Source: an uncultured Eubacteriales bacterium (GTDB lineage: Bacteria; Bacillota; Clostridia; Christensenellales; Aristaeellaceae). From it: a stretch of DNA of 64,000 bases. This document shows positions 30,492 through 60,053 of this stretch, one piece after another (positions within the stretch are counted from its first letter, which is position 1; each line of letters starts with the position of its first letter). Both the position numbers and the translations under genes were made by a program. Location of the stretch: assembly GCA_902765305.1 (NCBI GenBank), contig CACWZI010000014.1, positions 886 to 64,885 on the forward strand, written 5' to 3'. The notes under the pieces were generated by a model, which did not search any database, had not been told where the DNA came from, and saw only the letters and a list, made by a program, of their open reading frames with translations.

Positions 30492-33059
30492 TTATTTGGT
30501 ATTGACCACAAAGATCTCCGGCGCAGGCCAGTCGCCGTAGTGGATGGCGACGAAGTCGGCGGGGGTGGTGATCGTATCTTCCTCAATGACACCGACGGCT
30601 TTTGTCTCGGCGTCATCGAGTTGAGCGATGGTTTTCAAGTTGTACTTAGCAACCCTGGCCTCGCCGGTGCCTTCGCCGTAGTTGTCCTTCAGCTTGGTGT
30701 CATACGGCAGGGCAGGTTTCCAGTCTGTGAACGCGCCGCAGAACTTATTATATTCCTCGGCATCCAAATCAAGCGCCTTAACGCCATCCTTAGTCCCGTC
30801 GCTTTCGCCTGCCTTGGGAACAGGCGTCAAATAATCGTAGCCCACAGTCTCATCCTCATATTCATTGATGATCTCATAGTAATGGCAATCAGAAGTTGTT
30901 CCACACGCTCCAGCAAACGCGCCCTGCGTCGTTCCGCTCACCTTGCCGGTGCAATAGCTGCTCGAAATCGCGCCACTGCCTGTACCGATCAGGCCGCCAA
31001 CGGTTGTGCCGGTTGCGGAGCAGGTGGAATAGCTGTAGCTGATTTCCGCAGCTCCAGCGTCTCCAATCAGGCCGCCCGCAACGCCACTGGCAGTTACGTT
31101 GTACTTATCGGAATCGTAGGTGACGCCTATGACCTCAGCGTCGGTGCCGGTGCCGTTCATCTTGTTGATTGCGTGCCCGCCGGCATAGCAGCCGGAAACG
31201 CTGCCGCCGTCGGAGGTACCGATCAACCCGCCCGCGTTGCCGCCCTCGCTCTTGACAATCAAAGCAGCGGCAGATTTCTGGATGGTGCAGTTCGTCGCGC
31301 TGCCGATCAGGCCGCCCGCAGCACCAGAGGCTTTTGTATACACAGTGGTCTTCGTCTCATCCGTCTTCGCCAGCTCGGTTTCAAAGTCGGACGTATTATG
31401 CGCTACGACATTGGTAATTGTGGTGCCCGACAGGGTTCCGGCCAACGCGCCGGCGTTGCCGGAAGCCAGCGTCACCTTGGTGTCGATCAGTTCAAGGTTC
31501 TTGATCTCGCCACCCGTCAGGGAGCCAAAGACGCCACCCGGCGCGACCGTTGCTGTACCCGGAGCATCACCGGTGTTGTCCACCACGACGCCCTTGATGC
31601 TGTGGTTCTCCGTGAAGGTTTTGGTCGTCGTGGCACTCTCCCCTGTCCCGGAAGTCTCCGTAATCTTCACGTCGGACTGGCCATTGTAGTTCAGGGTGTA
31701 ATTTACCGATACAGGCAGGAAGCAGTCAGCCTTTGTCGCGTTCGTGTTACTATAAATACTGACGCTCTCCGAACTCTTCCTTGTTTTTATCGCCGAAACA
31801 AAATCATCGGTTCCATCATCCTCATCATTCCAATACAGGTTTGTCGTCTGTACTGCATTGATGGTATTATTAAAGTAGCTATTACTATAATTCAAGCCAG
31901 AAAGACCGTCGTTGAGATTTGCCAGGTGGCGGATATTGCTGATCTTTGTCGTTTTCTTGCCCGTTTCATCCTCAGTGACTTCATTAAAAAGGCTGTTAGT
32001 TGTCCATTCGCCGCTGTAGGCCACGCCAGTCAGGAAGTCATTGCTGAATGCCACCGCCTGAATAGTGATGTTTTCCCCAGGAATGAATGTTCCAATCTCG
32101 CGTGTACCCGTAGGTTTCTTTTTCTCATTCTGTAATTCAGAAAAGTGCAAGCCTTCAGTTGTTATATCATCAAGTACCACAGTGAAGACCTTGTCGACTG
32201 TATCGTATACAACCCTCTCGCCTGTGCTTAAATCCAGAAAGCTAGTCTTGCTCTCTAATGGTATAGCAATTTTTGCCTTGCTCTGAATGCCTGTAACAAT
32301 TAGCTTCATCTTAGGAACTAACTCTGACTTATCTGTGTTCGGATTCGTTACCGTTACAAGCAGCATCTCTGCATTTATGACATCAATTACCGGCGCTTCA
32401 AGGTATTCGCCAGATTCGACAATGTCTTCCCCGCCGCACCATCCGAGAACGCCATTGCCGCCAATTTTGGCGCGTTCGCTTTTCTTTTCCGTTCCACGGT
32501 AAGAACTAACAGCCGTGCCATAATTCATGCTGCTGATACCATACTTATTTTCATCCGTCCAGTAAAACACATCCAGAACTTGAGCGGCATTCGGCTGATA
32601 GCGAATAATATACTTTCCTCCCGTCACAAGTTCCACAGCGCCAAGTGGAAGAATCTGGTCCAATGCGGTTCCCGCGTTGCTCGATGTACTATCGAAATAA
32701 AATATATCATCGTTTGTATCTGCGTCTGCATTGCCTTTTGTACCGAAAAAGCCGCTGGTAATTGCGGTAGACAAATCTGATTTTTGTTGATAATTCTCGC
32801 TCTTCGCCAGCGTCAGGTGATTTTGAGCGGCAACGAATATCTCCTTCGCAATGGCGTCATACTGCAACTGGGTCATGGATTTCTGGTGCGCCTGCACGGC
32901 AATAAAGCTCACGGCAGCCAAAATACCGATGATCGCAACAACGATCAACATTTCAGCCATCGTAAAGCCAGCAGTGTGCCGTTTACACCATTCTCCGTTA
33001 TTAACGCGTATCGCACTGTTTCTGCTCTTCAACATATCAATCACCACATTCATTGCCAT
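30492..33059 (-). CDS. Large modular type IV pilin-like protein (prepilin N-terminus plus GLUG-repeat beta-helix adhesin-like module), 855 aa
   Basis: Class III signal: RHTAG/FTMAEMLIVVAIIGILAAVSFIAV (G-1, E+5). The C-terminal half has four or more GLUG-type repeats (AAGGLIGSATNCTIQKS, NAGGLIGTSDGGSVSGCYAGG, VAGGLIGDAGAAEISYSYS, TVGGLIGTGSGAISSSYCTG). The start may be the internal ATG at 33035, which gives a shorter leader. Confidence 0.75.
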   Translation of the reverse strand: MAMNVVIDMLKSRNSAIRVNNGEWCKRHTAGFTMAEMLIVVAIIGILAAVSFIAVQAHQKSMTQLQYDAIAKEIFVAAQNHLTLAKSENYQQKSDLSTAITSGFFGTKGNADADTNDDIFYFDSTSSNAGTALDQILPLGAVELVTGGKYIIRYQPNAAQVLDVFYWTDENKYGISSMNYGTAVSSYRGTEKKSERAKIGGNGVLGWCGGEDIVESGEYLEAPVIDVINAEMLLVTVTNPNTDKSELVPKMKLIVTGIQSKAKIAIPLESKTSFLDLSTGERVVYDTVDKVFTVVLDDITTEGLHFSELQNEKKKPTGTREIGTFIPGENITIQAVAFSNDFLTGVAYSGEWTTNSLFNEVTEDETGKKTTKISNIRHLANLNDGLSGLNYSNSYFNNTINAVQTTNLYWNDEDDGTDDFVSAIKTRKSSESVSIYSNTNATKADCFLPVSVNYTLNYNGQSDVKITETSGTGESATTTKTFTENHSIKGVVVDNTGDAPGTATVAPGGVFGSLTGGEIKNLELIDTKVTLASGNAGALAGTLSGTTITNVVAHNTSDFETELAKTDETKTTVYTKASGAAGGLIGSATNCTIQKSAAALIVKSEGGNAGGLIGTSDGGSVSGCYAGGHAINKMNGTGTDAEVIGVTYDSDKYNVTASGVAGGLIGDAGAAEISYSYSTCSATGTTVGGLIGTGSGAISSSYCTGKVSGTTQGAFAGACGTTSDCHYYEIINEYEDETVGYDYLTPVPKAGESDGTKDGVKALDLDAEEYNKFCGAFTDWKPALPYDTKLKDNYGEGTGEARVAKYNLKTIAQLDDAETKAVGVIEEDTITTPADFVAIHYGDWPAPEIFVVNTK

Positions 33060-33110
33060 GATTTAGCAGGGTACCGCCTGCCATTATCTGTTTTGCCTTA
33101 TAAATACCAT

Positions 33111-33764
33111 TTACGTACCCGACTCAACAGCATCCTTTGAAATAACGCGGATTGTTAAGTCGAGCTTTGCTCCATCTTCTCCTAAAAACTTTAAAAAATC
33201 GGAATCATCGGATTTTTTACATACCCTCAGGCCTTTTATTGTGACGATACCATTCGTCGTATCGTAGCTAATTCCGTTATCATCACAAGTCACATACCCA
33301 AAGGAAGAAGAATCAGCGACAAGAAGATGTCCCTTATCTTTATGATTTTGTTCTAGTGTCGCCTCATCCAAGTCGTGTATAAGGTCATCATTTAGGGAAA
33401 TATATTCCTCAACCCATAATTTTCCATCAGAATCCTTTGTAAGCGTTGTTTTTGCGCCTGTGCTGGCACTGAAATACGACAATCCTCCATCAATTTGCTT
33501 CACATCCCATGCTGTGCCAATTTCATCATGCAGAGCCGTTATTGCTGTGGAAAGCATGACCTTGGCATTTGCGCCGAGGATGACCTTGTTATAAGCGTTT
33601 GTGACCGCAGGCATGCCTGTGGCAACTACGATAGAAACCAAAAGCAATATCAGCACAGCCAGCAGAGTCTCCGCAAGCGTAAAGCCTCCCCTGCCCCTGA
33701 GCTTGCGATCCACCGGCAAACATGCCTTTTCAGAGATTCCGTTTTCAAACAATCTTCTATTCAT
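33111..33764 (-). CDS. Prepilin-type N-terminal cleavage/methylation domain protein (minor pilin or pseudopilin), 217 aa
   Basis: RGRGG/FTLAETLLAVLILLLVSIVVATG is a canonical G/FTLxE motif with a hydrophobic helix. Confidence 0.75.
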   Translation of the reverse strand: MNRRLFENGISEKACLPVDRKLRGRGGFTLAETLLAVLILLLVSIVVATGMPAVTNAYNKVILGANAKVMLSTAITALHDEIGTAWDVKQIDGGLSYFSASTGAKTTLTKDSDGKLWVEEYISLNDDLIHDLDEATLEQNHKDKGHLLVADSSSFGYVTCDDNGISYDTTNGIVTIKGLRVCKKSDDSDFLKFLGEDGAKLDLTIRVISKDAVESGT

Positions 33765-33816
33765 ATGCTCCGCCCAACCATCGTCTGCATACTGGTCTGT
33801 CTCTGGTTATATTTCC

Positions 33817-34161
33817 TTACGGTGTCTTCGTTAGTTTATACGCCACCACTGGCTTGCTGGTAAAAGCATCGTTTACATTATAATTCACGTCGTTGTGATA
33901 CTCCTCTATCGTACCTGAACCCTTGATCGTAATATTCAGTTTTTTTCCGCTTGTGGGTTGCTGAACCAGGCTTGCATCAGCTTTGTAATACTTCCCCATC
34001 TGCTTGTCACTGACATTGATCATCCTTGCGGTGGCACTGATGGCACCCGCAAGCATGACCAGCGCTAGCGCCGAAATCAGCAGCGCCACCAGCGTTTCCG
34101 CAATGGATTCGCCCGCACTGTTTTTCAGCTTACGGCATGTTTGTTTCATCATTGCTCTCAT
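33817..34161 (-). CDS. Small pilin-like protein with a degenerate prepilin motif (about 114 aa)
   Basis: NSAG/ESIAETLVALLISALALVMLAGAI has G-1 and E+5 conserved, with a non-canonical +1 residue. GGGAGGAG lies 10 nt upstream of the ATG at 34161. The track ORF begins at the TTG at 34170. Confidence 0.6.
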   Translation of the reverse strand: MRAMMKQTCRKLKNSAGESIAETLVALLISALALVMLAGAISATARMINVSDKQMGKYYKADASLVQQPTSGKKLNITIKGSGTIEEYHNDVNYNVNDAFTSKPVVAYKLTKTP

Positions 34162-34215
34162 AATGTGCAAACTCCTCCCGGTCTTTTGCCCCTTTTCTTT
34201 AGCTACTCACATCAA

Positions 34216-34896
34216 TTATACCATTGCACCCTTTTTTATACTGTTTACAGACCACTCCAGCGTAGTTATCACCCTTTTCATCGATTTCCCTCCATTGGTA
34301 TATTGTAACTCGGATGTAGTGATATTAGCGTCAAACACCGCTTGCAGCGTATATTTATTCTGCTTTGTAGCACCTTCCACATCCGCATTGGAAACTTCGA
34401 AGATAACTCGCCCGTCTTTGAAGACATATTCTTTGATTGTGCAGGCTGTCAAAGAACCTGTTGGTGCACCGTTTGTCGTCAGCTGCAAAGTGTCATCCGG
34501 AACCGTGGGAGTCGAAGCATTATTTGCAATCTTGTCGACCAACTTTTCCGACACCGCTTTGAGCACAGGGTATAGATCCTTCACGTCTGTTCCCGTCGTA
34601 TCATCTTTCTCGACAGCCTTTGACACAACAGGAGTATCATTATTGCCCGTTGACAAATCTTTGCTGTATTCCACCGTTACCTTCATTCCCTTGAAATCAT
34701 CGCACAATAATTCCACCGCCGAGGTGACGGCGTAATAGCGTTGATCGGTTTCGGCCCTCTGGCTCATGCGCCCGGTGGCCGCCGAACCTGCGACGACCAC
34801 GACGATGCTGACCACGGAGCACACCAAAAACAACAGCAACGCGAAGGTGATGGACGCACCCCTTTGGGATTTTATCTTGTTTTTCATGGCGTTCAT
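34216..34896 (-). CDS. PilX_N-like / GspK-like minor pilin candidate, 226 aa
   Basis: KSQRGASITFALLLFLVCSVVSIVVVVAG resembles the PilX N-terminal motif (RG-x-aliphatic helix, no E+5). RBS GGAGGTGA. Starts 67 nt after the giant ORF stop with no terminator between. Confidence 0.55.
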   Translation of the reverse strand: MNAMKNKIKSQRGASITFALLLFLVCSVVSIVVVVAGSAATGRMSQRAETDQRYYAVTSAVELLCDDFKGMKVTVEYSKDLSTGNNDTPVVSKAVEKDDTTGTDVKDLYPVLKAVSEKLVDKIANNASTPTVPDDTLQLTTNGAPTGSLTACTIKEYVFKDGRVIFEVSNADVEGATKQNKYTLQAVFDANITTSELQYTNGGKSMKRVITTLEWSVNSIKKGAMV

Positions 34897-34963
34897 GCGC
34901 CATCACCTCCGGTTGTTGATGGGGGCATCTGTCAGGGTTTGGGGCTAACCATCCCACCGCCCA

Positions 34964-52900: not shown

Positions 52901-55900
52901 GTAGACGTTTTCCTCCACGACGGAATAGAAGATATCCTTGCCGCCCTCCTGCGCGGGAAGGCCGACAAAGGTCGCCGTGTCATAGTATTGATCTTTTGTC
53001 AATTCGAGGGTCTGGGGCTGGCCGTCCTTGGTCACGGGCTCCGCGGTCCCGCCGCCGACGGACTTGTACAGCCCGACCACCACTTTTTTGACCTCTTCAG
53101 GCCATGCCTCGTCGCCCTTGACACCCCAGGTCGCCGTCACCGGGATGTCGACCGCTTCGCTACGGTTGGGGAGGGTCACGGTGTTGTAGGAGGTCGTCAG
53201 ATCCGTCGCGGAGACGTCAGCGGGCAGGCCCTCCGGGACGCCGCTTTTGCCTTCGGAGAAGTAGAAGTAGATCTTCTCCGGGCTGGCGGGCGTGATATAG
53301 TCCTCCGGCGCCCGGGTTTCCGCCACATAATACAGGGTATCGGCGGCATACGCGGCCTGCGCATCGCCCCTGCGAATCGTGATCGAATTCCCGTTGCCGG
53401 CCTCGTAGGTCGCCACGGGGTTGTCCTGGGCGTCGTACACCGTGAAAACCGCGCCCGGCAGCGCCTTGCCCGTATTCCCGTCGATCTTGATGATGGTCAG
53501 CTTGTGATCCACATACTCGTTTGTGAAGGCAAGGTCATAGCTGAACGCCTTGCTGTCGTCCGGATCAACGGTAAACTCGTTGGAATCATCCTGGACGGGC
53601 ATGCCCTCCTTCTGATAGGAGATGGATACCGAGACATTCTCTTCAACGATGCCCTCCAGCTCTTCGGGAAGCGCGTTTTCCTCGATGACATGGTAGGTGG
53701 CATAGTCCTCCAGTTCCGCGCCGCCTTCCTTGCCGATGCTGAAGTTGATGGAGCCGTAGGAAAATTCCGCGTAGGTGTGGCTTTCCACATCCTCCCAGCC
53801 GCCTTCGACGCTCGGGTTCTCCTTCTGCAGGATGAAGGTGATGGCGTTCTTCTGCGCGTCCGTCAGCGCATAGTTGCCGCCGAAGCGCTTGGTGACGTTT
53901 ACACCCTTCCCCTCGGGATAGCAGCGAACCTTCAGCACGTCGCCGTTGGAATAGCTGTAGATGCTGCCATATTCATAGCTGGATTCGTCGGTGATCAGGA
54001 AGCTGTAGTAGGTATTGTCCTTCTGGTAGTAGATATAGTTCCCGTCCAAAATCTCAAACGGAGTGGTGACCATTTCGAGGTAATAGGCGGTATTCTTGCG
54101 AATCGCCAGGCCATCCTTCGCCTCGTCCAGGGCGATATCCACGTAACCTGTCTCGCCCGTCGTAAACACGATGGGCTGACCCTTGTTCGCTCCGGCCTTG
54201 TAGGTCATAGGCCGCATGTTGGAATCGAGCAGGCGGAACGCGGCGCCTTCAAGCCCTCGCTCCATGTGCCCCTCGGCATAGACGTACAGCTTGATGCTGT
54301 ACACGCCGCCCGTGCCGGAGATGTCCGAGCCGGTGGGGGCGATGGTGACCTGCGTATTCACCGTAGAGGAAGGGCCGCTGGCATAATCCTGGTTGGTGAC
54401 CCTGCCGAGCGTCGCGGTGTTGGTAATATCCACCGTATCCCCCACGTTGCCCTTGACCCTGGTGGTATAGGTAATGGTCACAGTATCCCCGTCAGGAACG
54501 GTAAACGTTCCGGTATAGCCGCTGTAATCAAACGAGGGATCTTGCGCTTCGGAGGTCTGTACTCCGCTCTTGCTCTTGATTTGAACCGAGCCATAGTTGA
54601 TGGACTGGTTTTCACTGAACGTATCCTTGATTGTGATGTCTCCGCCATTATTCAACGACAGTGCATTCGGATTGAAGACGATCTTATAGCTGGCCAGGTC
54701 GCCGTTGAATTCTGTAAGTTCCTTGCTGATGAGATTGGAAACCTCGCCGTCCATGATGATCAGCAGGCCGTTCTGCGTAGCGGTGACGACATAGTTGCCG
54801 GTGGTGTCCTTAGTCTCCTTCAGCGTTACGCCCTCAAAGGTGACGTCGTACATGCCCGGCTCAGTGCCGCTGCCGGAGGCCGAGACGCCGTCGAAGGTCA
54901 GGCCGTTCACGCTGCAGGTATAGCCACTGACGGTAATTGCCTCGTCTGTTTTAGGCATCGTTGCGCTGTTGGCCGTCAGGGTGACGGGAGCGGGCTTGAT
55001 GGTGGCGGTGATGCTTTGAGCTTCTTCTCCATCCAACCTGTAATTTACGGTATAGGTTCCCGCGTTTATTGCGGTGGGAATCGCGCCAAGTGCATACTCG
55101 CTGCCATCCAGGCTGAAATACAGCACATCGGGATTGTCCGACGCCACAAGCGCGTGCACCTGGCCGTCATAGGTGGAATCAACCGCCGTAACCGTGGGCC
55201 GGGTGATTTCCAGCGTGCCGGGAACAAAACCCACCTCATAGTTTCCCTGCTGCGCTTCTCCCGTGGGCGTAATGGCATACTCGCCCACGCTCTCACCTTC
55301 GGCGCGGGAGAGGGTATAGGTTATGACACTTTCCGCGTCGTCATTCTTCAAGCCGGACACGGTGGCCGTCAGTTCGGGATCGGCAGTGCCGTAAATCTTG
55401 CTCTTGGCGTCAGCCGTCACCGTTGCCATCACCTTGGTGACGGTCAGGTTGGCAGGAACAAAGGTTACACTGTAGTTGCCCTGTTCCGCGTCGCCCGTGG
55501 GCGTGATGGCATATTCGCCCGCATCCTCGCCTTCGGCGCGGGAGAGGGTGTAGGTTATGACGCTGACGGTATCGTCGTTCTTAAGTCCCGTCGCCGTCGC
55601 CGTCAGCTCGGGGTCGGCATCGCCGTAGGTCTTGGTCTTGGCTTCCGCAGTCACTGTAGCCGTCGCCCTGGTGACGAGCAGGTTGGCAGGAACAAAGGTT
55701 ACATTGTAGTTGCCCTGTTCTGCTTCGCCCGCAGGCGTGATGGCATAGTCGCCCACATCCTCGCCTTCGGAGCGGGAGAGGGTGTATGCGACGGTGTCCT
55801 CACCAATGAGACCCTCCACTGTCGCCGTAAAGTCAGGGTCGGCATCGCCGTAGACCTTTGATTTTTCATCTGCGGTCACCGTCGCGCTGGTTGGATTGAT

Positions 55901-58900
55901 CGTCAGCCCACCATCGGCAATGACAAAGGTCACATCGTAGCTGTCGTTTACATTGACAAAATCAGCAGCGGTCAATGCCATGTCATAGCTGCCAGCGTTC
56001 GTGCCGCTTGCGCTAGCAGTGCCGCTGAAGGTGAAAAACTCCTCGGTATAATTATCGATATTACTGGATACCTCATAACCATTCACTGTGTGCTCCTGGC
56101 CATCGTAATCCACCGTCTCGGAATGCTCAGTGATGGTAACAGTTACCTTTTCGCGAAAAGTAACATTGATGGTGATCGTATCATTGTTATTCATCATCAG
56201 CGTCAGACTGCTGTCGCCCTCTGTGGGTTCGCCCTCTGTGGAGATTCGCCAGTCGCCATTCTCTTGTTCCGCCTGCACGCTGCCGACTGCTGTTACTGTC
56301 TCAACCTCACTGATACCGTTCTCTATGCCCAGTTCTTCAAGCAGCTCCGAAAGCATGAGACTGCCCCCGGCTTGTGCTGTGTATGAATAAATCTGATTCT
56401 CAGGCTGATGTGTATACGTCACCACATACACCGAGAAGCCGTCGGCCTCGAAGGTCACGGCATCGCCCTCCAGGGCGCAGGAAAGCGTCTTCGGTTCGTC
56501 GCCGAAGTGAATGACGTCGATATTGGTGTTTTCAGCGGCCTCCGGCGCGTCCAGCAGCTTGATGGACACGGACACGGGGGTCTGGGGCTGGACGGGCTGG
56601 CCGTCTGCCAGTATGGAGATGTCCAGGGCCTTGGCGTAGGCGACCTGGCTGCCGTTTACGTTCAGGGCCTCGGCGGCGCGGGCGGCGTAGGCTTCGGCCT
56701 CGTCGCCGGTCAGCTCGGAGACGCTCAAGGTCGCGCCGGAGGGGATGCCGGCCTCGGGGCCGTAGCTGACCTCCACGTTATAGGTGTTGCCGGAGGCGTC
56801 TATGTAATGGGTGGAGATGGTCTCGGTGACCACCACAGCGTACAGCGAGAAGCCGTCGGCATCAAAGCTGATTTCAGTCTCGACGTCGCCAACGCCGACT
56901 TCGGTCTGTTCAATTTCGACTTCACCCGGTTCCGTGTCGCCGGCAGGCAGTTCGACGTTCAGGTTTGTCCTGCCGCTCGCGCTCTCGACGTCGGTATCGG
57001 CGACGATCTGCGTCTGACCCTCGTCGTCCATGTGGACGACCACGGCGGACTGGTCGTCATTGATCTCGCTGACCGAGATGACCACCGATACGGGGATGCG
57101 CGGCTCGATCTCATTGCCCCCTGCGTCGTAGAAGGCGATGTCCACCAGCTGAACGCGGCGGACCTTCACGAAGTCGTCTGCCACGCTCTCGCGGATTTCG
57201 GAGAGGGCGTCCGCATCCCATACACGGCGCACCGACATCGTGGCGCCCTCGGGGAAAGCGCCTTCATCCGCCGTCACGGTCACATTGACGCCCGAGGTGC
57301 GGGCCGCAAAGCTGGCGGCGGGCCAGCTGACGGCAGTCTCGGGTTCAGGCGAAGGTTCGTCGGTCTGGGCTTCAGTTCCGGGTTCGACCTCAGGCAGCGC
57401 TTCAGGTTCCACCGCTGACACGTCGTCGACCTCGTCTTCACTTTCTTGCTTCGGCGTTTCCTCGGATACGATCTCCTCCTGCGCTCCATCTTCAGGCACA
57501 ATTTCAAGAGCGCCGTCCTGCGTCGCTTCGGGGCTGCTCACCGCTTCCTGCCGAATCCCGCTTTCAGCGTCATCGCTGCCCCCGGATTCCTGAGTGGGTT
57601 CTGCTTCTGTCTCTGCTTCCGGCTCCTGCTCCGGTTCAACCACCGGTTCAGATTCCGGCTCAACTTCTGACTCCTGCTCAGGTGCCGCCTCCGGCTCCTC
57701 TATCTGTTCAATCTCCGGTTCGGCTTCCGGCTCGTGTTCAGGCTCTGCTTCCGGCTCCTCGATCTGTTCAACCTCCGGCTCGGCTTCCGGCTCCTGCTCA
57801 GGCTCCTCGATCTGTTCAACCTCCGGCTCAGCTTCCAGCTCCTGCTCAGGCTCCTCGATCTGTTCAACCTCCGGCTCAGCTTCCGGCTCCTGCTCAGGCT
57901 CCTCGATCTGTTCAACCTCCGGCTCAGCTTCCGGCTCCTGCTCAGGCTCCTCGATCTGTTCAACCTCCGGCTCAGCTTCCGGGTCCTGCTCAGGCTCCTC
58001 GATCTGTTCAACCTCCGGCTCTACTTCCGGTTCCTGCTCAGGCTCCTCGATCTGTTCAACCTCCGGCTCAGCTTCCGGCTCCTGCTCAGGCTCCTCGATC
58101 TGTTCAACCTCCGGCTCTACTTCCGGCTCCTGCTCAGGTGCTGCCTCCGGCTCCTCGATCTGTTCTACCTCCGGCTCGGCTTCCGGCTCCTGCTCAGGTG
58201 CCGCCTCCGGCTCCTCGATCTGTTCTACCTCCGGCTCGGCTTCCGGCTCCTGCTCAGGCTCCTCGATCTGTTCAACCTCCGGCTCCTGCTCAGTCGCTGC
58301 CTCCGGCTCCTCGATCTGTTCAATCTCCGGCTCCTGCTCAGTCGCTGCCTCCGGCTCCTCGATCTGTTCAACCTCCGGTACGTCCTCCGGCTCCTCGATC
58401 TGTTCAACCTCCGGCTCTACTTCCGGTTCCTGCTCACGTTCTGTCTCCGGCTCCTGTATCTGTTCAATTTCCGGCTCGGCTTCCTGCTCCTGCGCCGGTT
58501 CTACCTCCGCCTCAGCTTCCGGCTCCTGTATCTGCTCAACCTCCGGCTCGGCTTCCGAGACAGGCGTCTCTACCTGTTCAACGTCAAGATCAACACCGAT
58601 ATCAATGCCGAGTTCGTCATTCTGTCCGGATACTTCGATCAAATCCCCGGATGAGGCATCCTCCAACCCAATGTCATCGATTTCAGGTATTTCCAGTGAG
58701 CTGTCGAAAACATCGGTTTCTGTTTGTTCCGAATCCGATGCCCGCCCGTTCTGCAAAACAATGGTATAGGATTTGCTGCCCGTAAACACGGCAAGCTCGA
58801 TCTCGTTAAAGCTCCGAATCACCGTGAGCCGGTAATCCTTCTTGCCCTTTTCAATGGTCAGGCACTGTCCTTCTTTCCCATTGTGTTCGATCACGCCCAG

Positions 58901-59692
58901 ATCCACAACATCACTGACCTTAATGGGCAAGCCGGCGCGCTTGAGCAGCGCGCTGAGGCGAATCTTCGAGGACGCGTCACGGAGGTCGCAGCTGAAGAGC
59001 GGACCAAAGCCCTCGGGATCCTCCGAAAGCGCCATGGCCGCCTTGGCCACCTCCTCCGCCGTCAGGGTCGGATCGTTGACCAGCCTGAGGTTAAACATGC
59101 CGTCAACCGTATAGACCGTCAGCCGCGCTTCCGCGAAGAGAGGCTTCAGGACGATGAGATAATCGTCCTCCACCTCGGCAATCGCCACAAACAGGGACAT
59201 GTCGATGCCCGTATTGGCGCCGTTGTTCTGCAGGGAGACGCTCTGGATGTCCTTCAGCTGCCTGACCGGCAGCTCCAGTTTCACAATAAGATCACTGAGC
59301 AGCAGCCTGGTCTCATCCTCCAGACGATAGGCATAAGTCTTCCCGTCTCCCGCCGCATTTGACGCGAGATTGTTCGAAAGGGAGAGATCGCCCAGCTGGT
59401 CGAGGGCATCGTCATACGCATCCGCCAGCGAGGTATCCGTCTCCAGGTCCTCGGCAAAGGCAAAGGGTTCGGGATTGATCTCCAGGATCTCAGCCGACGC
59501 CAGTCGGGTTTGGGCGGCGTTGATATCGTCCACCACAAGGCCGAGGGTATTGGACAGCAGGCATACGACCACAAGCATGCTGAACAGCCGCTTCGCAAAA
59601 CGCCTGTTGATCCATCCCCGCCACGGTCCGTGCCGCCACGATTCCAAGTCCCGCGGCGCTCGGTTCGATTCTATATTTCGATAGTCCTTCAT
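34964..59692 (-). CDS. Giant surface protein (about 8,242 aa) with signal-anchor, acidic repeat spacer, MBG and Cna-B/SpaA-like domains, and six Pmp-type (GGAIY) parallel beta-helix modules
   Basis: - One uninterrupted ORF of 24.7 kb. The ATG at 59692 is preceded by GGAGG at 8 nt. The track ORF starts at the upstream TTG at 59734.
- N-terminus: RRFAKRLFSMLVVVCLLSNTLGLVVDDINA.
- Dozens of NGGA(I/V)Y, GGG(I/V)Y and GN.A motifs.
- MBG-type repeats (K.YGDADP...TYTLSR.EGE.VGEY.ITP.G...QGNY.V.F).
- SpaA/Cna-B-like segments (LPGAVFTVYDAQDNPV..., LSGAEFELYTS..., GKLPFGTYYMEEYE).
- Ends ...RLDQSTTPLP* with no LPXTG. Confidence 0.9.
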   Translation of the reverse strand: MKDYRNIESNRAPRDLESWRHGPWRGWINRRFAKRLFSMLVVVCLLSNTLGLVVDDINAAQTRLASAEILEINPEPFAFAEDLETDTSLADAYDDALDQLGDLSLSNNLASNAAGDGKTYAYRLEDETRLLLSDLIVKLELPVRQLKDIQSVSLQNNGANTGIDMSLFVAIAEVEDDYLIVLKPLFAEARLTVYTVDGMFNLRLVNDPTLTAEEVAKAAMALSEDPEGFGPLFSCDLRDASSKIRLSALLKRAGLPIKVSDVVDLGVIEHNGKEGQCLTIEKGKKDYRLTVIRSFNEIELAVFTGSKSYTIVLQNGRASDSEQTETDVFDSSLEIPEIDDIGLEDASSGDLIEVSGQNDELGIDIGVDLDVEQVETPVSEAEPEVEQIQEPEAEAEVEPAQEQEAEPEIEQIQEPETEREQEPEVEPEVEQIEEPEDVPEVEQIEEPEAATEQEPEIEQIEEPEAATEQEPEVEQIEEPEQEPEAEPEVEQIEEPEAAPEQEPEAEPEVEQIEEPEAAPEQEPEVEPEVEQIEEPEQEPEAEPEVEQIEEPEQEPEVEPEVEQIEEPEQDPEAEPEVEQIEEPEQEPEAEPEVEQIEEPEQEPEAEPEVEQIEEPEQELEAEPEVEQIEEPEQEPEAEPEVEQIEEPEAEPEHEPEAEPEIEQIEEPEAAPEQESEVEPESEPVVEPEQEPEAETEAEPTQESGGSDDAESGIRQEAVSSPEATQDGALEIVPEDGAQEEIVSEETPKQESEDEVDDVSAVEPEALPEVEPGTEAQTDEPSPEPETAVSWPAASFAARTSGVNVTVTADEGAFPEGATMSVRRVWDADALSEIRESVADDFVKVRRVQLVDIAFYDAGGNEIEPRIPVSVVISVSEINDDQSAVVVHMDDEGQTQIVADTDVESASGRTNLNVELPAGDTEPGEVEIEQTEVGVGDVETEISFDADGFSLYAVVVTETISTHYIDASGNTYNVEVSYGPEAGIPSGATLSVSELTGDEAEAYAARAAEALNVNGSQVAYAKALDISILADGQPVQPQTPVSVSIKLLDAPEAAENTNIDVIHFGDEPKTLSCALEGDAVTFEADGFSVYVVTYTHQPENQIYSYTAQAGGSLMLSELLEELGIENGISEVETVTAVGSVQAEQENGDWRISTEGEPTEGDSSLTLMMNNNDTITINVTFREKVTVTITEHSETVDYDGQEHTVNGYEVSSNIDNYTEEFFTFSGTASASGTNAGSYDMALTAADFVNVNDSYDVTFVIADGGLTINPTSATVTADEKSKVYGDADPDFTATVEGLIGEDTVAYTLSRSEGEDVGDYAITPAGEAEQGNYNVTFVPANLLVTRATATVTAEAKTKTYGDADPELTATATGLKNDDTVSVITYTLSRAEGEDAGEYAITPTGDAEQGNYSVTFVPANLTVTKVMATVTADAKSKIYGTADPELTATVSGLKNDDAESVITYTLSRAEGESVGEYAITPTGEAQQGNYEVGFVPGTLEITRPTVTAVDSTYDGQVHALVASDNPDVLYFSLDGSEYALGAIPTAINAGTYTVNYRLDGEEAQSITATIKPAPVTLTANSATMPKTDEAITVSGYTCSVNGLTFDGVSASGSGTEPGMYDVTFEGVTLKETKDTTGNYVVTATQNGLLIIMDGEVSNLISKELTEFNGDLASYKIVFNPNALSLNNGGDITIKDTFSENQSINYGSVQIKSKSGVQTSEAQDPSFDYSGYTGTFTVPDGDTVTITYTTRVKGNVGDTVDITNTATLGRVTNQDYASGPSSTVNTQVTIAPTGSDISGTGGVYSIKLYVYAEGHMERGLEGAAFRLLDSNMRPMTYKAGANKGQPIVFTTGETGYVDIALDEAKDGLAIRKNTAYYLEMVTTPFEILDGNYIYYQKDNTYYSFLITDESSYEYGSIYSYSNGDVLKVRCYPEGKGVNVTKRFGGNYALTDAQKNAITFILQKENPSVEGGWEDVESHTYAEFSYGSINFSIGKEGGAELEDYATYHVIEENALPEELEGIVEENVSVSISYQKEGMPVQDDSNEFTVDPDDSKAFSYDLAFTNEYVDHKLTIIKIDGNTGKALPGAVFTVYDAQDNPVATYEAGNGNSITIRRGDAQAAYAADTLYYVAETRAPEDYITPASPEKIYFYFSEGKSGVPEGLPADVSATDLTTSYNTVTLPNRSEAVDIPVTATWGVKGDEAWPEEVKKVVVGLYKSVGGGTAEPVTKDGQPQTLELTKDQYYDTATFVGLPAQEGGKDIFYSVVEENVYGEADVDISDRFADSSSVSGTGWYVVNNQPAVSVVVNKAWLGLDGHPVTDASGKPEVTFDIYRTTTESKATGFTRDELVTFLAGAERVRTGLKLSADSWSKTVDSLQATDKEEHPYYYYALEQVPDNHEDSYAVAAATETAPRTLTISNRQTPYTVTIAVNDLEKIYGDETPDYTFTPDVKEDGATVVVSGPDSEGKYTATVTSANGAENTITFTVSREEGENAGAYTVTPSGDPLQSGYRVLYESGTLTINKALVIITAGAEKTYGDADPALVTIKGLKRDDDASVLSYTVSREDGEDVGEYPITLSGGTDQGNYTVTYVRRDADGKAYNFKINRATTTVKAKDSGKTYGEDDPDFEAEVTGLKFSDEATVLNYDLTREAGEDVGEYTITPSGEAEQGNYNVSYETGKFIISTAGLTIKAEDDEKTYGDVDLEWEVTFDGLTENDQGGTLTSALNEQTGARDYTYTVGEGEDAKTLLTFNVSRETGENVGDYILTPSGDATQRNYKIEYKTGTLTILRAELLVTPDRKVKAVGLAEDPLLTATVTGWMNGDEAAEATHEVGEGENAGVITWTYNRDGQTLLTFSLKRDAGEAEGDYPITATGGTEQSNYTVEYEEGVFEILAILDIDVTQPLVDHVDASANPTFTYKATLDLTGTGLTEYSKNGFEMVDGVPTQTFSLPAEDQASMKTLKVPGGAKLTVLQTDEHVYADYNTAIRLDSAPYTDADDPLRCVLDHVDTYHEIAFAHNRISLPVSARAAVGQTEEGATPLPGREGATGIPEAEDGIRAIDSGFADDMHSKIEYVLPADKYYAYDHASLYTAAGDAIAGGTNVTQIKYDRDNAKWLYRTNGDFVEVPENAQLVLFYLPKYVCKIGTEKFYSLRDAVEYADEHGKTATIEMLIGEYTIRSKDDAVTIPADCTITITTATTEYEGTGTAVISRSLSYPNGHLFYNDGTLTFDTITLEGNSVQAGDALVLNRAENAALTVNQGATLQNAKGVNGGAIYQAGGTVTVNGTLTNNAVTNGGGAVYVKAGTFTMGADGKLIGNSAATGGAVHVNDGTVNIGGTIGGTGEGDGNTATSGGAVYINKGMVNVTGSVTGNGADNGGAVYQVGGTLTVSGSMNQNTASVNGGAVYVSNGTLTVEAGGSLSDNSATSATGNGGAVYQAGGTVDNEGVISGNGAASGGGIYRVNGTLTVGGTLSGNTANENGGGLYTVGGAVTVTGTLGGDAEGAANSAANGGAIYTSGTTLNLNGARFTGNTATDNGGAIYALNADTVIGGTWTNAATEGTAASFKGNAATGNGGALYMEGGSVTVMNANSTLNANTAENGGAIYATSGAITVEKGKLESNEANANGGAIYVDSASVTVKGGTLGGTGKGNVAKQGNGGAIYSGSGPVTISGGTLAGNSAESGEGGAVYADSGTVNYTGGSINGGNSAVNGAAIFVGSGIANVSASITGNTATNGGAIGVGGTLARLNFKGNAEVNNNTMNGAQSNVYLDVDSELVVNADSLNNGKKIGIYVPGDVNSDQVVKHGDVTGYFGAYVSAGTLANISNVFKSDRFSDLKVAYENNRVYWIGNLTYDIYWLKNYDSQFPPTTSYTAAPSKKVCTNKTYAPRTRQSDIYDLVMAMKLYEKHNNDFVTNVGADYASTAVYAYTFSDKALNNTFENYLKTIRWDGTARKWVYDKKDGTTAPANTTKLVIFYSAPAYLTVVNNNTSGLELDISELTVLGKDAGEGVYGYVTAKNGATVTTLRTLTADDLKLGAGDSIKLMFPGAQGQKFTLKGTFTGEGAGEGTAVSYTFNGGARQTITGTTVDFSSDSFKLNPNDESADLIFGDALPICKIGDQPFSTLKAAIAYAVAQKASTGNDTYKIEMLVDYLVPKDDILEIPAGYNITFTTAAKDAETLPYKGNGTRATLSRDTGNTGSSVSATNSTLTVDSLAFDGRSLTASGAGGAVSATNCTTVTITNCDFKGYRAKNGGAVYVDNQKTGSSLTVEDCSFYNCQTNASNDKAGGGGLWTTARELYVRRCDFDFCACLAGNAQAGSIFHNIRSDWAPNSKTVISDCTFSNSYSVGGSGGTIETDALDVTIENCEFRGSYTNKSKGNGGAINALAGDAGASGTEGYIGNYNADCCLTVRNCLFEGCRADNSGNGGAIVSSMWYVTIENCKFDNCQSKYGGAIKMTNGNAKWLHINGSTFKNCTAADVGGGVHAAVPSIEIKKSNAGKFLDNTDNDGSTHFIDCVANRGGGIDNNKDGATVTMENVDFNRCAARTSNGGALYTKAQSLSITGDANNFTDCTGYGSGGAVYQLRNADKSSVTLENCTFTGCEANNNGNGGGLYATAKTLTINYDTANDSAIEGAKGSFVNCTAANAGGGLYHDNAGTVNIANCGFDGCTAKTNTGGGLHTTAHTLKIIGVDSKFKNCTAQTDGGGLYQNRNADGSSFTFRDGSFESCTATGNYGGAIYTPAKNVTLQSCTVKGSTAKAQGGGIWISPATKATFDGCTITGNTVTNSDSKGGGVYVNGGTTTYNSGTVSGCGAAYGGGWYQNNGTLYILGGSISGSATNGGGLYMYDGNTKVYHYGGTVAGTATANGGGVYKNNGSYTVGNGSYNNKEYNKGASIGGLITLPVTVNGEETTEAVTSSAVNGGGVYNANGTLTLNAGGSIGSLETGENGGIVYTATATGNGGGIYLGGGAVRIYGGVITNCQATGNGGGIFHTSTGSNNDLYFYGADSTVKIQNCLASNGGGVYVNSNTFHMGENGKTSLGTIENCQATINGGGVYVAGGTFNLRNASAIKACIANADGGGVYQAGGTFNQYNTSSIADCRASNNGGGVYHAGGAFAFSGGDIIRNSAANNGGGVYHAGGTFSMTNASAVIGGSEENANAANMGAGVFVADNQAATFNGSTVTYNHAVNAGGGIAVGGPDAVLTFQGTVTVRHNTMGSQNTACNVYLDQNRNTVIKNNALNAAAYIGVYASDEQDAGHGQSGKPFGTWNTGTNYDKNLNVYHNDRRQYLYGMKGSSNNLVIWPEFVCKITDGDGNLLYKDTSGTPAVYSELETGTNALNTATPTFYTAEGTSYTSNRYQVQMLVQEYELGSGKQIVLSAGALEVTLTTASTEEDECGFKYTGDSRFSATIKRTAATVPMVNLGNNNKLILNDVTLDGGHQAANNAEGAILRIWATAGTTPEVILNSGATLQNGSTANKAGGAVYLKDAACVFTMNAGSQIKDCSAGTSNGGAVAVNNGTFTMNAGSSITGCSAANGGGVYVTNSGAINMNGGTITGNNATSIGGGIALVNGNSRANFSGYCTVTGNTLNGTTRCNVQFTPDTNAIINAKGLDSRSEIGVYTANGTILTKHGESGDPFGTWSEDGDKLFCFVNDRSRDLWNIDLRGFESAVASNHYIYWEYHPLLTVFKAVESDWSYDRNEAEFTFEVSLPEKTSMTQTERNSIKGMSFNGQGIATVKLKAGESASAEFPNNFDKFEYEVKEILSADAQADYETAAQKNGEAYAFAEDKPLTVSGQLGENIGTANSTSLSSVTFTNTRNTDALTIKAETVSTVQSDYEESFDYTLTLGDNTISKTYPATGKIGELEFTAGVASFSLKHNESITIRDLPTDLPYTVEETLNDKQKTHIRTQVSRNGVEPVYAQSQNGKIGEAETPEEVVFTNNFLEIVCKITNRSRALLYYRDTAGKLQPAIFAHLEDAFDQVNSGNLRTSGNGTVSGQLRIEMVVPEYTMERGATLIAGKNVLLSTALTTDEQYPYNEGVDDGEGNVSTVTRGYDGDSMIVTDGAFTIDKITLDGGADVHNATVKGGVVRVTSPVRLTVNGGATLQNSATSGNGGAIWLGAGASLAMNGAILNCEAAAGGGVYAEIGFTGFTATGTISGCEATNGNGGAIYASIGSSVNLNAGTVLTGNTASGDGGAVWSAANVILRGTVGGTEENDGNKAGGNGGGICMGEYTTFTMYAGSSLSGNNANNGGGLATVSNARIAGGVLQNNSATVNGGAVYGGTGSTVAISGAASFTQNEANQGGAVYDGGSATMTGGSMTDNTASDKGGAVYVAGGKAFTMSGGSIKDGNKSPEGAVSTDSDVVLAFSGNAVVRGNTDTDGINAMNVFLGFDSNSIITTTGLGTSADIGVYVADGDPEDPETVEDAVVNPIYSDHGMSSRNFGTYTGSNAGGARLNKFVNDRDTTLNGMAGASVTNGNYVVWTGKGLQLRVYKVDSDGKNPTPASGIRFALTNDTTNMMVWSGNSDATGLVTIPWGAEESENGKAATFAPKSRYTLKQVAANADTVLPAGSWSLTVGRDNSVTWSQDAVIDTVNQTIAIALPEGTEKGYLGDTFDLFNDSKPTLTYNATGGKLSDNKIERTDTIKFTTQETSHAYTITETNPTWDSHVFRNWATMEKKPESTDGVDLTEEELSDKGYFEYDRLSEITFFRGTEQQENTQGTSKGDMTLYAQWDEVVCKITDRDGKILYVNGSPAVYGTLEAGFEAYNAAGSSTFTYGTGGKATARRIEMLVPTYTLNESVSVARGKTVTLTTAPTTDTDSYAYTGEPGTVCVITRGESCDGTMISNNANLTLMNITLDGGNRQVVCEGGFVNNAQTSAVLTIANGATLCNSLVDGNGGAVNAPAGTRVNVTGGTIVGNSASGFGGAIYTAGTLKVSGSARIGDEGKPNRATNGGGIYVADGQTEVTGSAKIRYNTADKQGEARWDEENGGGICLAGGTLNLAGNAEISHNEAKGRGGALYMLVGSATISGNSSLSDNIARNSEGGGGVYVYQSTLNMTGGTITGNRVLNDDGQGGGVRLANGGATFNLSGGTITNNEAASGGGVGMFNDSTMTMTGGTISGNRATNGGGVYSDNSATLNLKDGNIAGNIAETNGGGVYQAGGTFNMTGGTIGGTTASAANKAIDGAGIYVASGSAAVSDGSVTGNQATRDGGGVYNAAGVFALSENGKITGNTATRNGGGVYQNSTGIEATETDPAVPGFTVSGGGIDNNTAAANGGGVYHAGGTFAMTDGTIGGTANKAIDGAGIYVASGSADLSGGGIANNTANGNGGAVFVYNGGILNMSAGGIANNTANGNGGAVFVDNGGILNLSAGSITGNKATGTNGGAINVDGADARLNFSGNPVVYGNPAANGQQKNVVLSVDNNEVINTNETGLTGGTIGVYVIDGTDTYDKHGIQDTPFGTFGDAGHANPQVFVNDRDLALYAVSKSATDTNIYWVPIVCKLTDGSNNLLYTQRNINGQDVKVAAVYPHLEGTDASTCGLAAAEGTLYPYGSTTAYTGNAIQVKMLCDYELPASASVTGTRAVTLTTAETTTDGNTYMASNADSYIFVPGKEGENGRQATDSPSTAIIRRGPAFNDASMFTKAGSAEFTVKDIVLDSGNVQTAVNGGIVNVNAGKLTIADGAMLRNSETTGNGGTVYVAAGAITEMTGGEITGNTAANGGAVYVANGGTMTLKDGTSGTGTSATITGNTATADGAGIYLDEGATLNLEGSPDFGGADVDADGNILGERGNFIESADQAASDGDSTPDSGTSDGGDNTSSATGDGTDDEVAAARTNGQKTYTKERQDIYVKGYLGTVGSGETAKPKPATSIVVTGAINSGAGTIWVAAEEQEKEPENNHYKMLKQFAVYSGSTVNETTMKAFRNAWDDESTGCGADYLTGQDGDDLTDEAGKTWKCIYWTGGFDFVFKKIGPDGNALSGAEFELYTSTKVSEGVYTPATDTSGAFVPYEQTGSSGKKETATTKPIETAADAATIMVMPDGSTIPKKVENVYGQGLLKFEKIPPAVYFIKEKTDADGTVTIGSVKYRPVEDMYMVDLNPKGYYTITRVEVGEDSSKKPTYTNTGAAPTETLTFGTDSVPVALALNVDARTRKVILKKVDGSLTPLEGKYFTVKYADKTTIVKVDGVPLKKLASGVGGAFWIGKLPFGTYYMEEYESNAENAAVAKYFKFKVDDKGVSKPEGTDWTLTNRLDQSTTPLP
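35853..37240 (-). other. Beta-helix module 6 of the giant ORF (short, with an Asp/Ser/Gly-rich insert)
   Basis: Begins with VCKLTDGSNNLLYTQRNINGQDVKVAAVYPHLEG and has few GGAVY rungs. Two C-terminal SpaA/Cna-B-like domains follow at 34964-35852. Confidence 0.55.
37241..39532 (-). other. Beta-helix module 5 of the giant ORF
   Basis: Begins with VCKITDRDGKILYVNGSPAVYGTLEAGFEAY and ends with KNVVLSVDNNEVIN...IGVYVIDGT...PFGTFGD...FVNDRDL. Confidence 0.65.
39533..41902 (-). other. Beta-helix module 4 of the giant ORF
   Basis: Begins with VCKITNRSRALLYYRDTAGKLQPAIFAHLEDAF and ends with MNVFLGFDSNSIIT...IGVYVADGD...FGTYTG...FVNDRDT. A SpaA-like domain follows (LQLRVYKVDSDGKNPTPASGIRFALTND). Confidence 0.65.
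41903..43822 (-). other. Beta-helix module 3 of the giant ORF
   Basis: Begins with VCKITDGDGNLLYKDTSGTPAVYSELE and ends with CNVQFTPDTNAIIN...IGVYTANG...PFGTWSE...FVNDRSR. A beta-sandwich linker follows. Confidence 0.65.
43823..47392 (-). other. Beta-helix module 2 of the giant ORF (longest; Cys-rich rungs of the form NC.F..C.A....GGG(L/I))
   Basis: Begins with ICKIGDQPFSTLKAAIAYAVAQ and ends with CNVYLDQNRNTVIKN...YIGVYASDEQ...PFGTWN...YHNDRRQ. Confidence 0.65.
47393..50299 (-). other. Beta-helix module 1 of the giant ORF
   Basis: Begins with VCKIGTEKFYSLRDAVEYADEHGKTATIEMLIGEY, continues through GGA(I/V)Y rungs, and ends with NVYLDVDSELVVN...IGIYVPG...FGAY...F.SDR plus a linker beta-sandwich. 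Confidence 0.65.
51030..52450 (-). repeat. MBG-domain block 2 (about five tandem copies) in the giant ORF
   Basis: EKIYGDETPDYTF..., AEKTYGDADPALVTIKGLKRDD..., SGKTYGEDDPDFEAEVTGLKFSDE..., DEKTYGDVDLEWEVTF..., ...DAGEAEGDYPITATGGTEQSNYTVEYEEGVFEI. Confidence 0.7.
55195..55915 (-). repeat. MBG-domain block 1 (three tandem copies) in the giant ORF
   Basis: KVYGDADPDFTATVEGLIGEDTVAYTLSRSEGEDVGDYAITPAGEAEQGNYNVTFVPANLLVT, plus two further copies. Confidence 0.7.
57560..58560 (-). repeat. In-frame acidic tandem repeat (EPEQEPEAEPEVEQIE units; 48-bp period with longer variants) inside the giant ORF
   Basis: About 20 reiterations of ggctcctcgatctgttcaacctccggctcagcttccggctcctgctca on the plus strand. 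It translates to E/P/Q/V/I-only sequence of about 320 aa. Confidence 0.9.
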
Positions 59693-59888
59693 CTGGTCTA
59701 CCTCCAAAAAGCAGAAGCCATTTTTATATGGCAAACTCCGCCTGCATTATTTTATCTGCAGACGGAAACCCATTATTCCGTTCCTCCAACCGATTCCTCG
59801 GAATATGCATTCCGGCCATATCGGTTGAAAATCATTGTGGATGTGGCAAAATCCATCTATATATAGTCGATTCTACCAACCCACATAT

Positions 59889-59897
59889 ATTATATCA
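59889..59897 (-). promoter_or_regulatory. Candidate extended -10 promoter (TGaTATAAT) for the giant-adhesin operon
   Basis: Minus strand catgaTATAATatatg. TG at 59897-59896 and TATAAT at 59894-59889. The -35 is poor. This would give a 5' UTR of about 195 nt. It is the only good -10 between the upstream terminator and the start codon. Confidence 0.35.
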
Positions 59898-59993
59898 TGG
59901 AAAAGGGTATAAAGTCCATATCCCAGGCCCCAAAATTCACAGTTTGCCCAAGTTTTTTTACAATGAAACCCTTTGAAATAACAGGGAGAGGAA

Positions 59994-60038: not shown

Positions 60039-60053
60039 TACACTCAAAAGCGC

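Follow-up and report, generated by a model that had tools for sequence, protein, structure and literature searches.

PilY1, PilC, MshQ and CpaL are large proteins found at the tips of pili, where they are docked on minor pilins. In PilC and PilY1, and by modelling in MshQ, the last ~10 residues dock as a beta-strand in a PilK-type minor pilin (Ellison et al., 2026); GspK from type II secretion systems (T2SS), ComGG and CpaL of the Tad system supply the complementing strand themselves. A recent model proposes that large tip adhesins arose after the split from Gram-positive Com pili. This article concerns a locus of an uncultured Eubacteriales bacterium (Clostridia; Aristaeellaceae) contained in a 64,000-nucleotide stretch of contig CACWZI010000014.1 (assembly GCA_902765305.1, positions 886 to 64,885 of the forward strand; hereafter the window), in which a gene for a giant protein of 8,242 residues is followed by a cassette of four pilin-like genes. 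The conserved pairing of giant and cassette in related genomes, often with a complete pilus operon adjoining, suggests that the pilus carries the adhesin. The interpretation favoured here, which we consider somewhat probable, is that the cassette encodes the minor pilins which make up the tip of, or prime, a retractile type IVa pilus in rumen Clostridia, that the giant is its cognate adhesin, and that the cassette in the window is a satellite copy standing apart from the machinery genes.

In general plan the locus resembles FimU-PilVWX-PilY1 of Pseudomonas aeruginosa, PilHIJK-PilC of Neisseria, the clusters of Myxococcus xanthus, and MshDOP-MshQ of Vibrio cholerae, in which a set of roughly four minor pilins, including one without the glutamate at position 5 (Glu5), is encoded beside a large Sec-exported non-pilin adhesin. 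It shares with the PilY1/PilC systems an adhesin that is variable in its N-terminal part and conserved in its C-terminal part, as well as linkage to genes for PilB, PilT, PilC (here the T2SSF-domain protein) and PilD, and with M. xanthus the occurrence of multiple alternative clusters per genome. Unlike PilY1 and PilC, however, the giant is SpaA-terminated, is 2-8 times larger and has no beta-propeller; no match to Neisseria_PilC / IPR008707 was obtained anywhere along it, which places it outside the PilY1/PilC family. The host, moreover, is a monoderm and has no secretin; its genes run adhesin-K-I-J-large pilin where those systems have H-I-J-K-Y1, and the protein in the putative K position has no detectable homology to PilX, PilK or GspK. 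The best reading of this comparison is that the system would work like the minor pilins and PilY1, PilC or MshQ of those bacteria, without being homologous to them.

All five genes lie on the minus strand. The giant open reading frame (ORF) occupies 34964..59734, and its likely start is the ATG at 59692, which has GGAGG 8 nucleotides (nt) ahead of it and yields a product of 8,242 amino acids (aa). Behind it follow p226 (34216-34896; 226 aa), a pilin-like protein without Glu5; p117 (33817-34161 or 34170; 114 or 117 aa, the shorter form counted from an ATG), a small prepilin; p217 (33111-33764; 217 aa), a prepilin; and p855 (30492-33059; 855 aa), a large modular pilin. The successive gaps are 67, 45-54, 52, and 51 nt, in agreement with an earlier interpretation made from the letters alone (the sequence-only reading), in which an 8,242-aa giant and four same-strand ORFs at intervals of 45-67 nt had been described as one unit with no terminator inside it; a terminator scan of the four junctions likewise returned no terminator-like site. 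The strong upstream terminator of that reading was also recovered, as an intrinsic terminator with an 18-bp stem, a 4-nt loop, and a T-run (60000..60039, minus strand). Running from 60039 to 60000, it closes an upstream sugar-nucleotide gene block and is the 5' boundary of the unit formed by giant and cassette. About 200 nt 5' of the giant ORF there is a sigma-70-like promoter candidate (59889..59918, minus strand, read from 59918 to 59889; TGGACT-18-TATAAT with an extended -10 TG), which is a consensus match only. The weaker terminator that had been placed at 30461-30481 did not hold up: the GC-rich hairpin found 3' of the p855 stop codon (30462..30481, minus strand) has no U-tract, was not called by the scan, and is at most a weak or leaky terminator.

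The window locus is present in at least 22 independently assembled metagenome contigs from several studies, and p226 has 855 relatives and p855 has 819 full-length ones, one named source being an Oscillospiraceae metagenome-assembled genome (MAG). Among species-representative genomes, a p226-family profile identified 78 loci, almost all from Clostridia of the ruminant gut (Oscillospiraceae/Ruminococcaceae, Lachnospiraceae, Butyrivibrio, Blautia, and Eubacterium) with a few from Eggerthellaceae, Solobacterium, and Mogibacterium; the closest match among them shows 61% identity, so that the species of the window itself is not among these genomes, and the E-values of the related-locus search are relative to the candidate stretches only. 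The counts that follow rest on ORFs in MAG contigs, so fragmented giants are undercounted, and a few of the loci may have been counted in duplicate or as the two halves of a single one. The order p226-p117-p217-p855 is kept at near-fixed offsets in 55 of the 62 loci with enough downstream sequence (mapped by tblastn), and in the mapped loci the p226 gene always adjoins p117 and p217. Of the 53 loci whose flank covers 5 kb or more, 34 have an open frame of 1,000 aa or longer that stops no more than 1.5 kb upstream of p226; in 30 of these 34, the frame is 1,500 aa or longer and stops within 300 nt of p226. Most of them run off the 10-kb flank. The slot after p855 holds an ORF of at least 1,000 aa in only 4/49 loci as against 34/53 for the upstream slot (Fisher p = 2.5e-9). 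The synteny of giant and four pilin genes described in the sequence-only reading therefore recurs in relatives, with the cassette present in 78 species-level genomes.

The pairing is also seen in rearranged form. One gene intervenes between giant and cassette in L028 (related loci are designated here by L numbers), the giant lies downstream of p855 and carries SpaA, DUF7601, and Flg_new domains in L073 and L077, giants stand on both sides of the cassette in L051 and L069, and the joined contigs L082 and L081 of MAG RGIG4894 have the permuted order giant-p855-p226-p117-p217-pilB. In L080 (12014-20282, plus strand), a p855 homologue of at least 2,756 aa begins with the prepilin N-terminus GFSMAEVLVV; p855 aligns over its full length with residues 1-734 of this homologue, behind which at least 2,000 residues without a Pfam match continue off the locus end. 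This predicted protein is a natural fusion of a p855-type pilin to a giant extension. Two distinct giant-plus-cassette modules each are found in RUG12424 and RGIG6928. Two cassettes each had also been considered for RGIG4894 and RUG12975, and this was rejected: L082/L081 and L068/L088 are probably one locus each, since the contigs break within p226. L023 and L024 may be duplicate contigs.

Genes for pilus machinery are physically linked to the same cassette in a number of relatives, so that the assembly ATPase and the prepilin peptidase on which the sequence-only reading depended are both encoded beside it there. A pilus gene set lies directly 3' of the cassette in L007, L009, and L011. In L009 and L011, it comprises PilB (586 aa, with an MshEN domain), PilT (349 aa), PilC (406 aa, T2SSF), a ~230-aa protein, PilD (Peptidase_A24), and PilM; in L007, it comprises PilB, PilT, PilC, and the ~230-aa protein, with no call for PilD or PilM. 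Some pil genes occur within 10 kb of the cassette in 17/49 loci. PilT scores 421 bits against a cut-off of 319 for TIGR01420, and PilB is full-length and contains an MshE-type motif for binding cyclic di-GMP (c-di-GMP), a combination that marks a retractile type IVa pilus and not a Com pilus or a secretion pseudopilus. Giants adjoin cassettes at 10 loci with machinery and at 16 without it; together with the two MAGs that have two modules each, this makes the window look like a satellite module. The ~230-aa protein encoded between pilC and pilD (L009 18414-19118, with equivalents in L007 and L011) has an N-terminal hydrophobic helix and neither a pilin motif nor a match in Pfam or NCBIfam. Candidate major pilins (~115-130 aa when mature) were seen near the cassette in few loci only, namely L018, L029, L055, L076, and L084.

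The same genetic linkage would be expected if the cassette, PilB, and PilC built a short pseudopilus that served as the piston of a monoderm type II secretion device, pushing a folded, rod-like giant of ~850 kDa through the thick peptidoglycan before it is released or passed to another receptor. An anchorless giant is compatible with a product that is released or becomes bound secondarily, the NCBI name for homologues of p855 is 'type II secretion system protein', and T2SS tip complexes are GspH-I-J-K tetrads. The cassette is indeed like GspH-I-J-K and ComGD-GE-GF-GG in being a minor-pilin tetrad whose apical subunit lacks Glu5, and weak profile resemblances run in the same direction. Unlike either system, however, the cassette is linked to PilT and an MshEN-containing PilB, and all its pilin matches to those families lie below the family cut-offs. 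We regard the export device as quite unlikely, since the linked PilT (above the TIGR01420 cut-off) and full-length MshEN-PilB are type IVa hallmarks, the NCBI name mirrors the N-terminal methylation motif only, and the fusion of pilin and giant in L080 implies retention on the filament, not release. Membership of the cassette in a T2SS was rejected, as no secretin or GspC/L/M Pfam domain is present among the called genes of L007, L009, and L011, PilT is present there, and matches to Gsp models are below cut-off. Membership in a Com pilus was rejected likewise: the ComGD, ComGE, and ComGF matches are far below their cut-offs, PilT is present, and the PilB/GspE-type ATPase has an MshEN domain.

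The giant itself begins with a Sec-type signal peptide. Its Pfam content comprises nine MBG_2 domains, two SpaA domains, a weak Cna_B match, Chlam_PMP repeats, Beta_helix, DUF4957, and two DUF7601 domains, so that the earlier label of a beta-helix adhesin was apt (MBG_2, Chlam_PMP, Beta_helix, and SpaA all being recovered by Pfam search). The N-terminal ~800 aa have no Pfam match, and a search of 5.8 billion proteins with the first 700 aa returned only seven relatives, fragmentary and from short contigs; judged by its sequence, the N-terminus of the giant is lineage-specific and its C-terminal domain is shared, the polarity known from PilY1/PilC, whose variable N-terminal part binds and whose conserved C-terminal part docks. 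The terminal SpaA domain (aa 8136-8219) is followed by a short tail, the protein ending in ...TLTNRLDQSTTPLP* with no LPXTG and no membrane or hydrophobic segment. SpaA-type domains usually precede the sortase signal in Gram-positive adhesins. All 38 cassette-linked giants that were compared have a terminal domain of SpaA/Cna-B type (consensus RKVILrKV...SGVFFiGxLPyGtYYlxEt) and a short variable tail, and the complete ones carry cleavable-looking signal peptides; an LPXTG-like motif or a C-terminal hydrophobic tail is found in 0/38, the window protein included. On this ground, the possibility that the giant is a sortase-anchored LPXTG surface protein was rejected. Giants with neither a sortase signal nor a membrane anchor need other means of retention, and the uniform loss of LPXTG after the terminal SpaA domain points to a different mechanism that they have in common. 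Sortase-anchored Gram-positive giants are otherwise similar, with a signal peptide and with extended arrays of SpaA/Cna_B, MBG, and beta-helix domains, the difference being that the cassette-linked proteins have no LPXTG and hydrophobic tail (38/38).

In a near-identical strain (L001, a 66-kb contig), the giant was called at 7,588 aa in place of 8,242 aa, which may stem from a varying number of repeats or from another choice of start. Long ORFs of up to 1,621 aa (e.g., 50996-55861) also run antisense to the giant on the plus strand between window positions 34985 and 59866; these are most likely stop-poor frames of a GC-rich repetitive gene and not genes. That the giant or the small ORFs could themselves be products of repeat misassembly or chance ORFs in GC-rich DNA is extremely improbable. 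Such DNA does yield long spurious frames, as the antisense ones of 1,000-1,600 aa illustrate, and the length of the giant does vary between assemblies (7,588 vs 8,242 aa), but the locus recurs in the independently assembled contigs mentioned above, full-length homologues in which the motifs are conserved number in the hundreds for each of the five proteins, strong Pfam domains extend over the giant, and confident structural models were obtained.

Three cassette proteins, p117, p217, and p855, have a basic leader, a glycine, a glutamate at +5, and a hydrophobic helix, with the glycine and the glutamate invariant or almost so among their homologues; a six-frame regex scan of the whole window found the prepilin G-x-x-x-x-E and hydrophobic motif in these three only, and AlphaFold2 (AF2) models show long N-terminal helices for p226 and p855. 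The largest of them, p855, has the N-terminus G/FTMAEMLIVVAIIG (G/FTMAE) and passes both the N_methyl (26.4 vs 21.2 bits) and the TIGR02532 (24.0 vs 16.3 bits) cut-offs, with a weak N-terminal resemblance to GspH/ComGD that stays below the family cut-offs. In its AF2 model (predicted local distance difference test, pLDDT, 82.6), a long alpha-1 helix leads into several beta domains and a beta-helix; GLUG motifs are present in a GLUG beta-helix module, and the best Foldseek match is to the non-catalytic GLUG/Ig region of the Streptococcus pneumoniae IgA1 protease (7uvl, E 2.3e-5). An N_methyl module joined to a distinct non-pilin module makes p855 a modular type IV pilin in the sense of Raynaud and Pelicic. 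Members of its family measure 800-1,500 aa, with the one of at least 2,756 aa described above, and the last 15 residues (HYGDWPAPEIFVVNT) are near-invariant over 31 homologues that have ~44-77% overall identity to the window protein.

The N-terminus of p217 is canonical, G/FTLAETLLAVLILLLV (G/FTLAE), and its family shows GFTLAETL with an invariant Glu5, the preceding glycine being kept in most members. At E ≤ 0.01, 25/36 members match ComGF (below threshold) and 20/36 match TIGR02532, and the p217 profile matches pilin N-termini in the PDB; p217 is a candidate for the GspJ/ComGF position. The N-terminus of p117, G/ESIAETLVALLI (G/ESIAE), conforms to the pattern G/ES-I-x-E-T-L-V-A-L-L-I, in which G17 and E22 are invariant across 37 homologues, and a match to XpsI (GspI) at 6.8e-5, below cut-off, makes it a candidate for the GspI/ComGE position. 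In p226, the leader KIKSQRG precedes ASITFALLLFLVC, and position +5 holds no acidic residue. Across its family there is an invariant G13 after the basic leader, then ASITFALL and a conserved hydrophobic helix, and the AF2 model (pLDDT 86) shows a 54-residue N-terminal helix packed on a beta-sheet. No pilin model in Pfam or NCBIfam, PilX_N included, matches p226, and no Pfam or NCBIfam model exists for its family; it is a candidate apical (K-position) subunit by its position and presumed function, with no family assignment. The I, J, and K assignments rest on motifs, sizes, and sub-threshold matches to hidden Markov models (HMMs), since PDB sequence and profile searches with p226, p117, and p217 gave N-terminal helix matches or nothing, and Foldseek with the p226 model gave no significant neighbour.

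Several of these results weigh against the assignment of the cassette to a pilus tip that carries the giant. No PilB, PilT, PilC, PilD, or PilM homologue was detected in the 64-kb window by tblastn or by Pfam searches of the large ORFs, as the sequence-only reading had already stated for PilB, PilC, and PilD. Of the prepilin N-termini which it had reported, the quoted motifs are all present and that of p855 passes N_methyl and TIGR02532, but the other two are sub-threshold: N_methyl scores 15.8 bits for p217 and 12.7 bits for p117, both below cut-off, and only 4/37 p117 homologues match N_methyl at E ≤ 0.01. Its description of p226 as PilX_N-like has to be given up. Not one of 31 family members matches a Pfam pilin model (PilX_N, GspK, or ComGG) at E ≤ 0.1, a Foldseek search of the PDB gave nothing at E ≤ 1e-3, and a PDB profile search also gave none. 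The C-terminus of p855 could, moreover, be a strand that completes the tip complex in the manner of CpaL, in which case the giant would bind elsewhere, with no defined docking site. An abutting upstream giant is missing from 19/53 cassettes, about one third, which means that the cassette is not dependent on one. Finally, in a mirror-tree style test, the pairwise identities of the giant's C-terminus correlate weakly with those of each cassette protein (0.13-0.31); this comparison is, however, uninformative, because the values hardly differ from the 0.22-0.48 found among the cassette proteins themselves.

Much of this would be accommodated if giant and cassette were uncoupled neighbours, the giant being an independent Sec-secreted adhesin or matrix protein that is retained non-covalently by the wall, by glycans or by other proteins and is merely co-regulated with the pilins or travels with them on a variable island. 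The cassettes that have no abutting giant and the weak co-variation speak for such an arrangement, as do the GC content of the cassette (0.45), which is much below that of the giant and the flanks, a transposase-like remnant adjoining the unit that suggests island-like dynamics, and the fact that no docking motif has been identified. Against it, the adjacency has been kept across Oscillospiraceae, Lachnospiraceae, and Eggerthellaceae, through rearrangements and in one gene fusion, the preference for the upstream slot is highly non-random, and the disappearance of LPXTG after the terminal SpaA domain in 38/38 giants argues for a dedicated and common means of retention. Independence of the two is therefore considered unlikely, though it is to be taken more seriously than the export device.

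If the cassette does form the tip of a type IVa pilus, the system may be envisaged as follows. The giant, which has no anchor, would be exported by Sec, as its signal peptide indicates, and the signal peptide would be removed. A prepilin peptidase encoded elsewhere would cleave p117, p217, and p855 after the glycine of their motifs, and probably p226 as well. To judge from motifs, sizes, and weak HMM matches, the four pilins would then form a complex in the membrane, with p226 at the apex, p117 and p217 in the GspI and GspJ (ComGE and ComGF) positions, and p855 adding its beta-helix. By analogy with the strand that PilY1, PilC, and MshQ insert into a PilK-type pilin, the conserved C-terminal SpaA domain of the giant, with its tail, may fasten the giant to this complex. 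PilB, of the kind encoded by the machinery loci of relatives, would polymerise the major pilin beneath and so drive complex and adhesin through the wall, after which the variable N-terminal end of the giant would bind its substrate and retraction by PilT would pull the cell in.

Among Firmicutes, the nearest parallels to p855 are the modular pilins PilB (vWA) and PilC (lectin) of Streptococcus sanguinis, in which a bulky module is likewise grafted onto a pilin module, encoded in a type IVa locus, and expected at the tip (Raynaud et al., 2021; PMC8179133). The graft of p855 differs in consisting of a GLUG beta-helix and Ig-like domains, and a separate non-pilin giant coexists with it. There is also a likeness to CpaL/TadG of the Tad system (~600 aa), a large pilin-like protein that completes the tip complex by folding back its extreme C-terminus: p855 has a pilin N-terminus, a large middle, and a near-invariant C-terminus, although the class of pilus differs. 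A partial precedent for the position of the giant is provided by the tapirins of Caldicellulosiruptor, which adjoin a type IV pilus locus. Tapirins have a beta-helix core and are much smaller than the giant, at under about 1,000 aa, and to our knowledge no report links them to a conserved four-pilin cassette. Giants of the Omnitrophota that have been implicated in attachment sit beside gspD/E/F-like genes and small genes that encode class III signal peptides (West-Roberts et al., 2023; bioRxiv 10.1101/2023.11.21.568195). They belong to another phylum, exceed 30,000 aa, have many transmembrane regions and SecA-like domains, and differ in their other domains and neighbours. In open-access papers and preprints, no description was found of the cassette or of its pairing with giants. 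The sequence-only reading had known of no described system that pairs a protein of this size with pilins, and this stands as far as that literature goes, with the qualification that the Omnitrophota giants lie by T2SS-like loci and that PilY1, PilC, MshQ, and CpaL are themselves pilus-tip proteins.

A broader proposal can be put forward only tentatively, and we give it slightly less than an even chance of being correct. On this proposal, the retractile type IVa pilus encoded by these loci in rumen and other herbivore-gut Clostridia belongs to a class that has not been described before. The class would be distinguished by a four-pilin tip that includes a family-specific Glu5-less pilin and a beta-helix pilin of ~850 aa, and by mega-adhesins, anchorless and interchangeable, that range from 2,400 to over 8,200 residues and are docked by a terminal SpaA domain and not by a PilY1 propeller. 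These would be the largest pilus-presented proteins by far, and several satellite modules would be served by each machine.

The surroundings of the unit in the window contain further features. A gene starting 56 nt past p855 encodes a secreted 261-aa protein (29650..30435, minus strand) with a signal peptide and three SH3-like repeats of ~85 aa each, separated by Asp-rich linkers and giving a weak SH3_9 match. The gene is also found 3' of the cassette in L013 (85% identity) and L023/L024 (72%) and is absent from most other loci; it is clade-specific, and may be an accessory gene of the unit that is co-transcribed with the cassette. Beyond it lies a PDDEXK_2 (transposase-like) gene (window 28630-29650), disrupted by an indel of ~270 nt, which is intact (286 aa) at 14244-15104 of L001, a 99.9%-identical metagenome contig. 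The decayed copy occupies the slot of pilB in related loci, and this hints at a rearrangement that parted the cassette from its machinery. The GC content is 0.45 over the pilin cassette (window 32000-34000), compared with 0.55-0.65 in the giant gene and 0.60-0.71 elsewhere, which may reflect horizontal acquisition or a constraint on composition. A protein with response-regulator, GGDEF, EAL, and PAS domains is encoded 6.4 kb from the cassette (window 21450-24071, plus strand); control of the pilus by c-di-GMP is plausible, because the cassette-linked PilB of relatives carries the c-di-GMP-binding MshEN domain. At the far end, where the GC content of the window is highest (~0.70), a 2,504-aa protein (window 1148-8662, minus strand) with GT2, glucoamylase-like, and GH94 supersandwich and catalytic domains resembles cyclic beta-1,2-glucan synthase.

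Should the coupling of giant and cassette be physical, the principle of minor pilins that present a large non-pilin adhesin, represented in diderms by PilY1, PilC, and MshQ, would extend to monoderms. Given the model that dates tip adhesins after the Com split, it would represent an independent solution with a different docking domain. It would also explain how widespread anchorless giants are retained and deployed by uncultured rumen Clostridia, and would set a record for the size of pilus cargo, from which mechanical and assembly questions follow. The conserved cassette offers a practical genomic marker for such adhesins in metagenomes, and the system, if real, would bear on the attachment of these bacteria to plant fibre, mucus, and other cells in the rumen.

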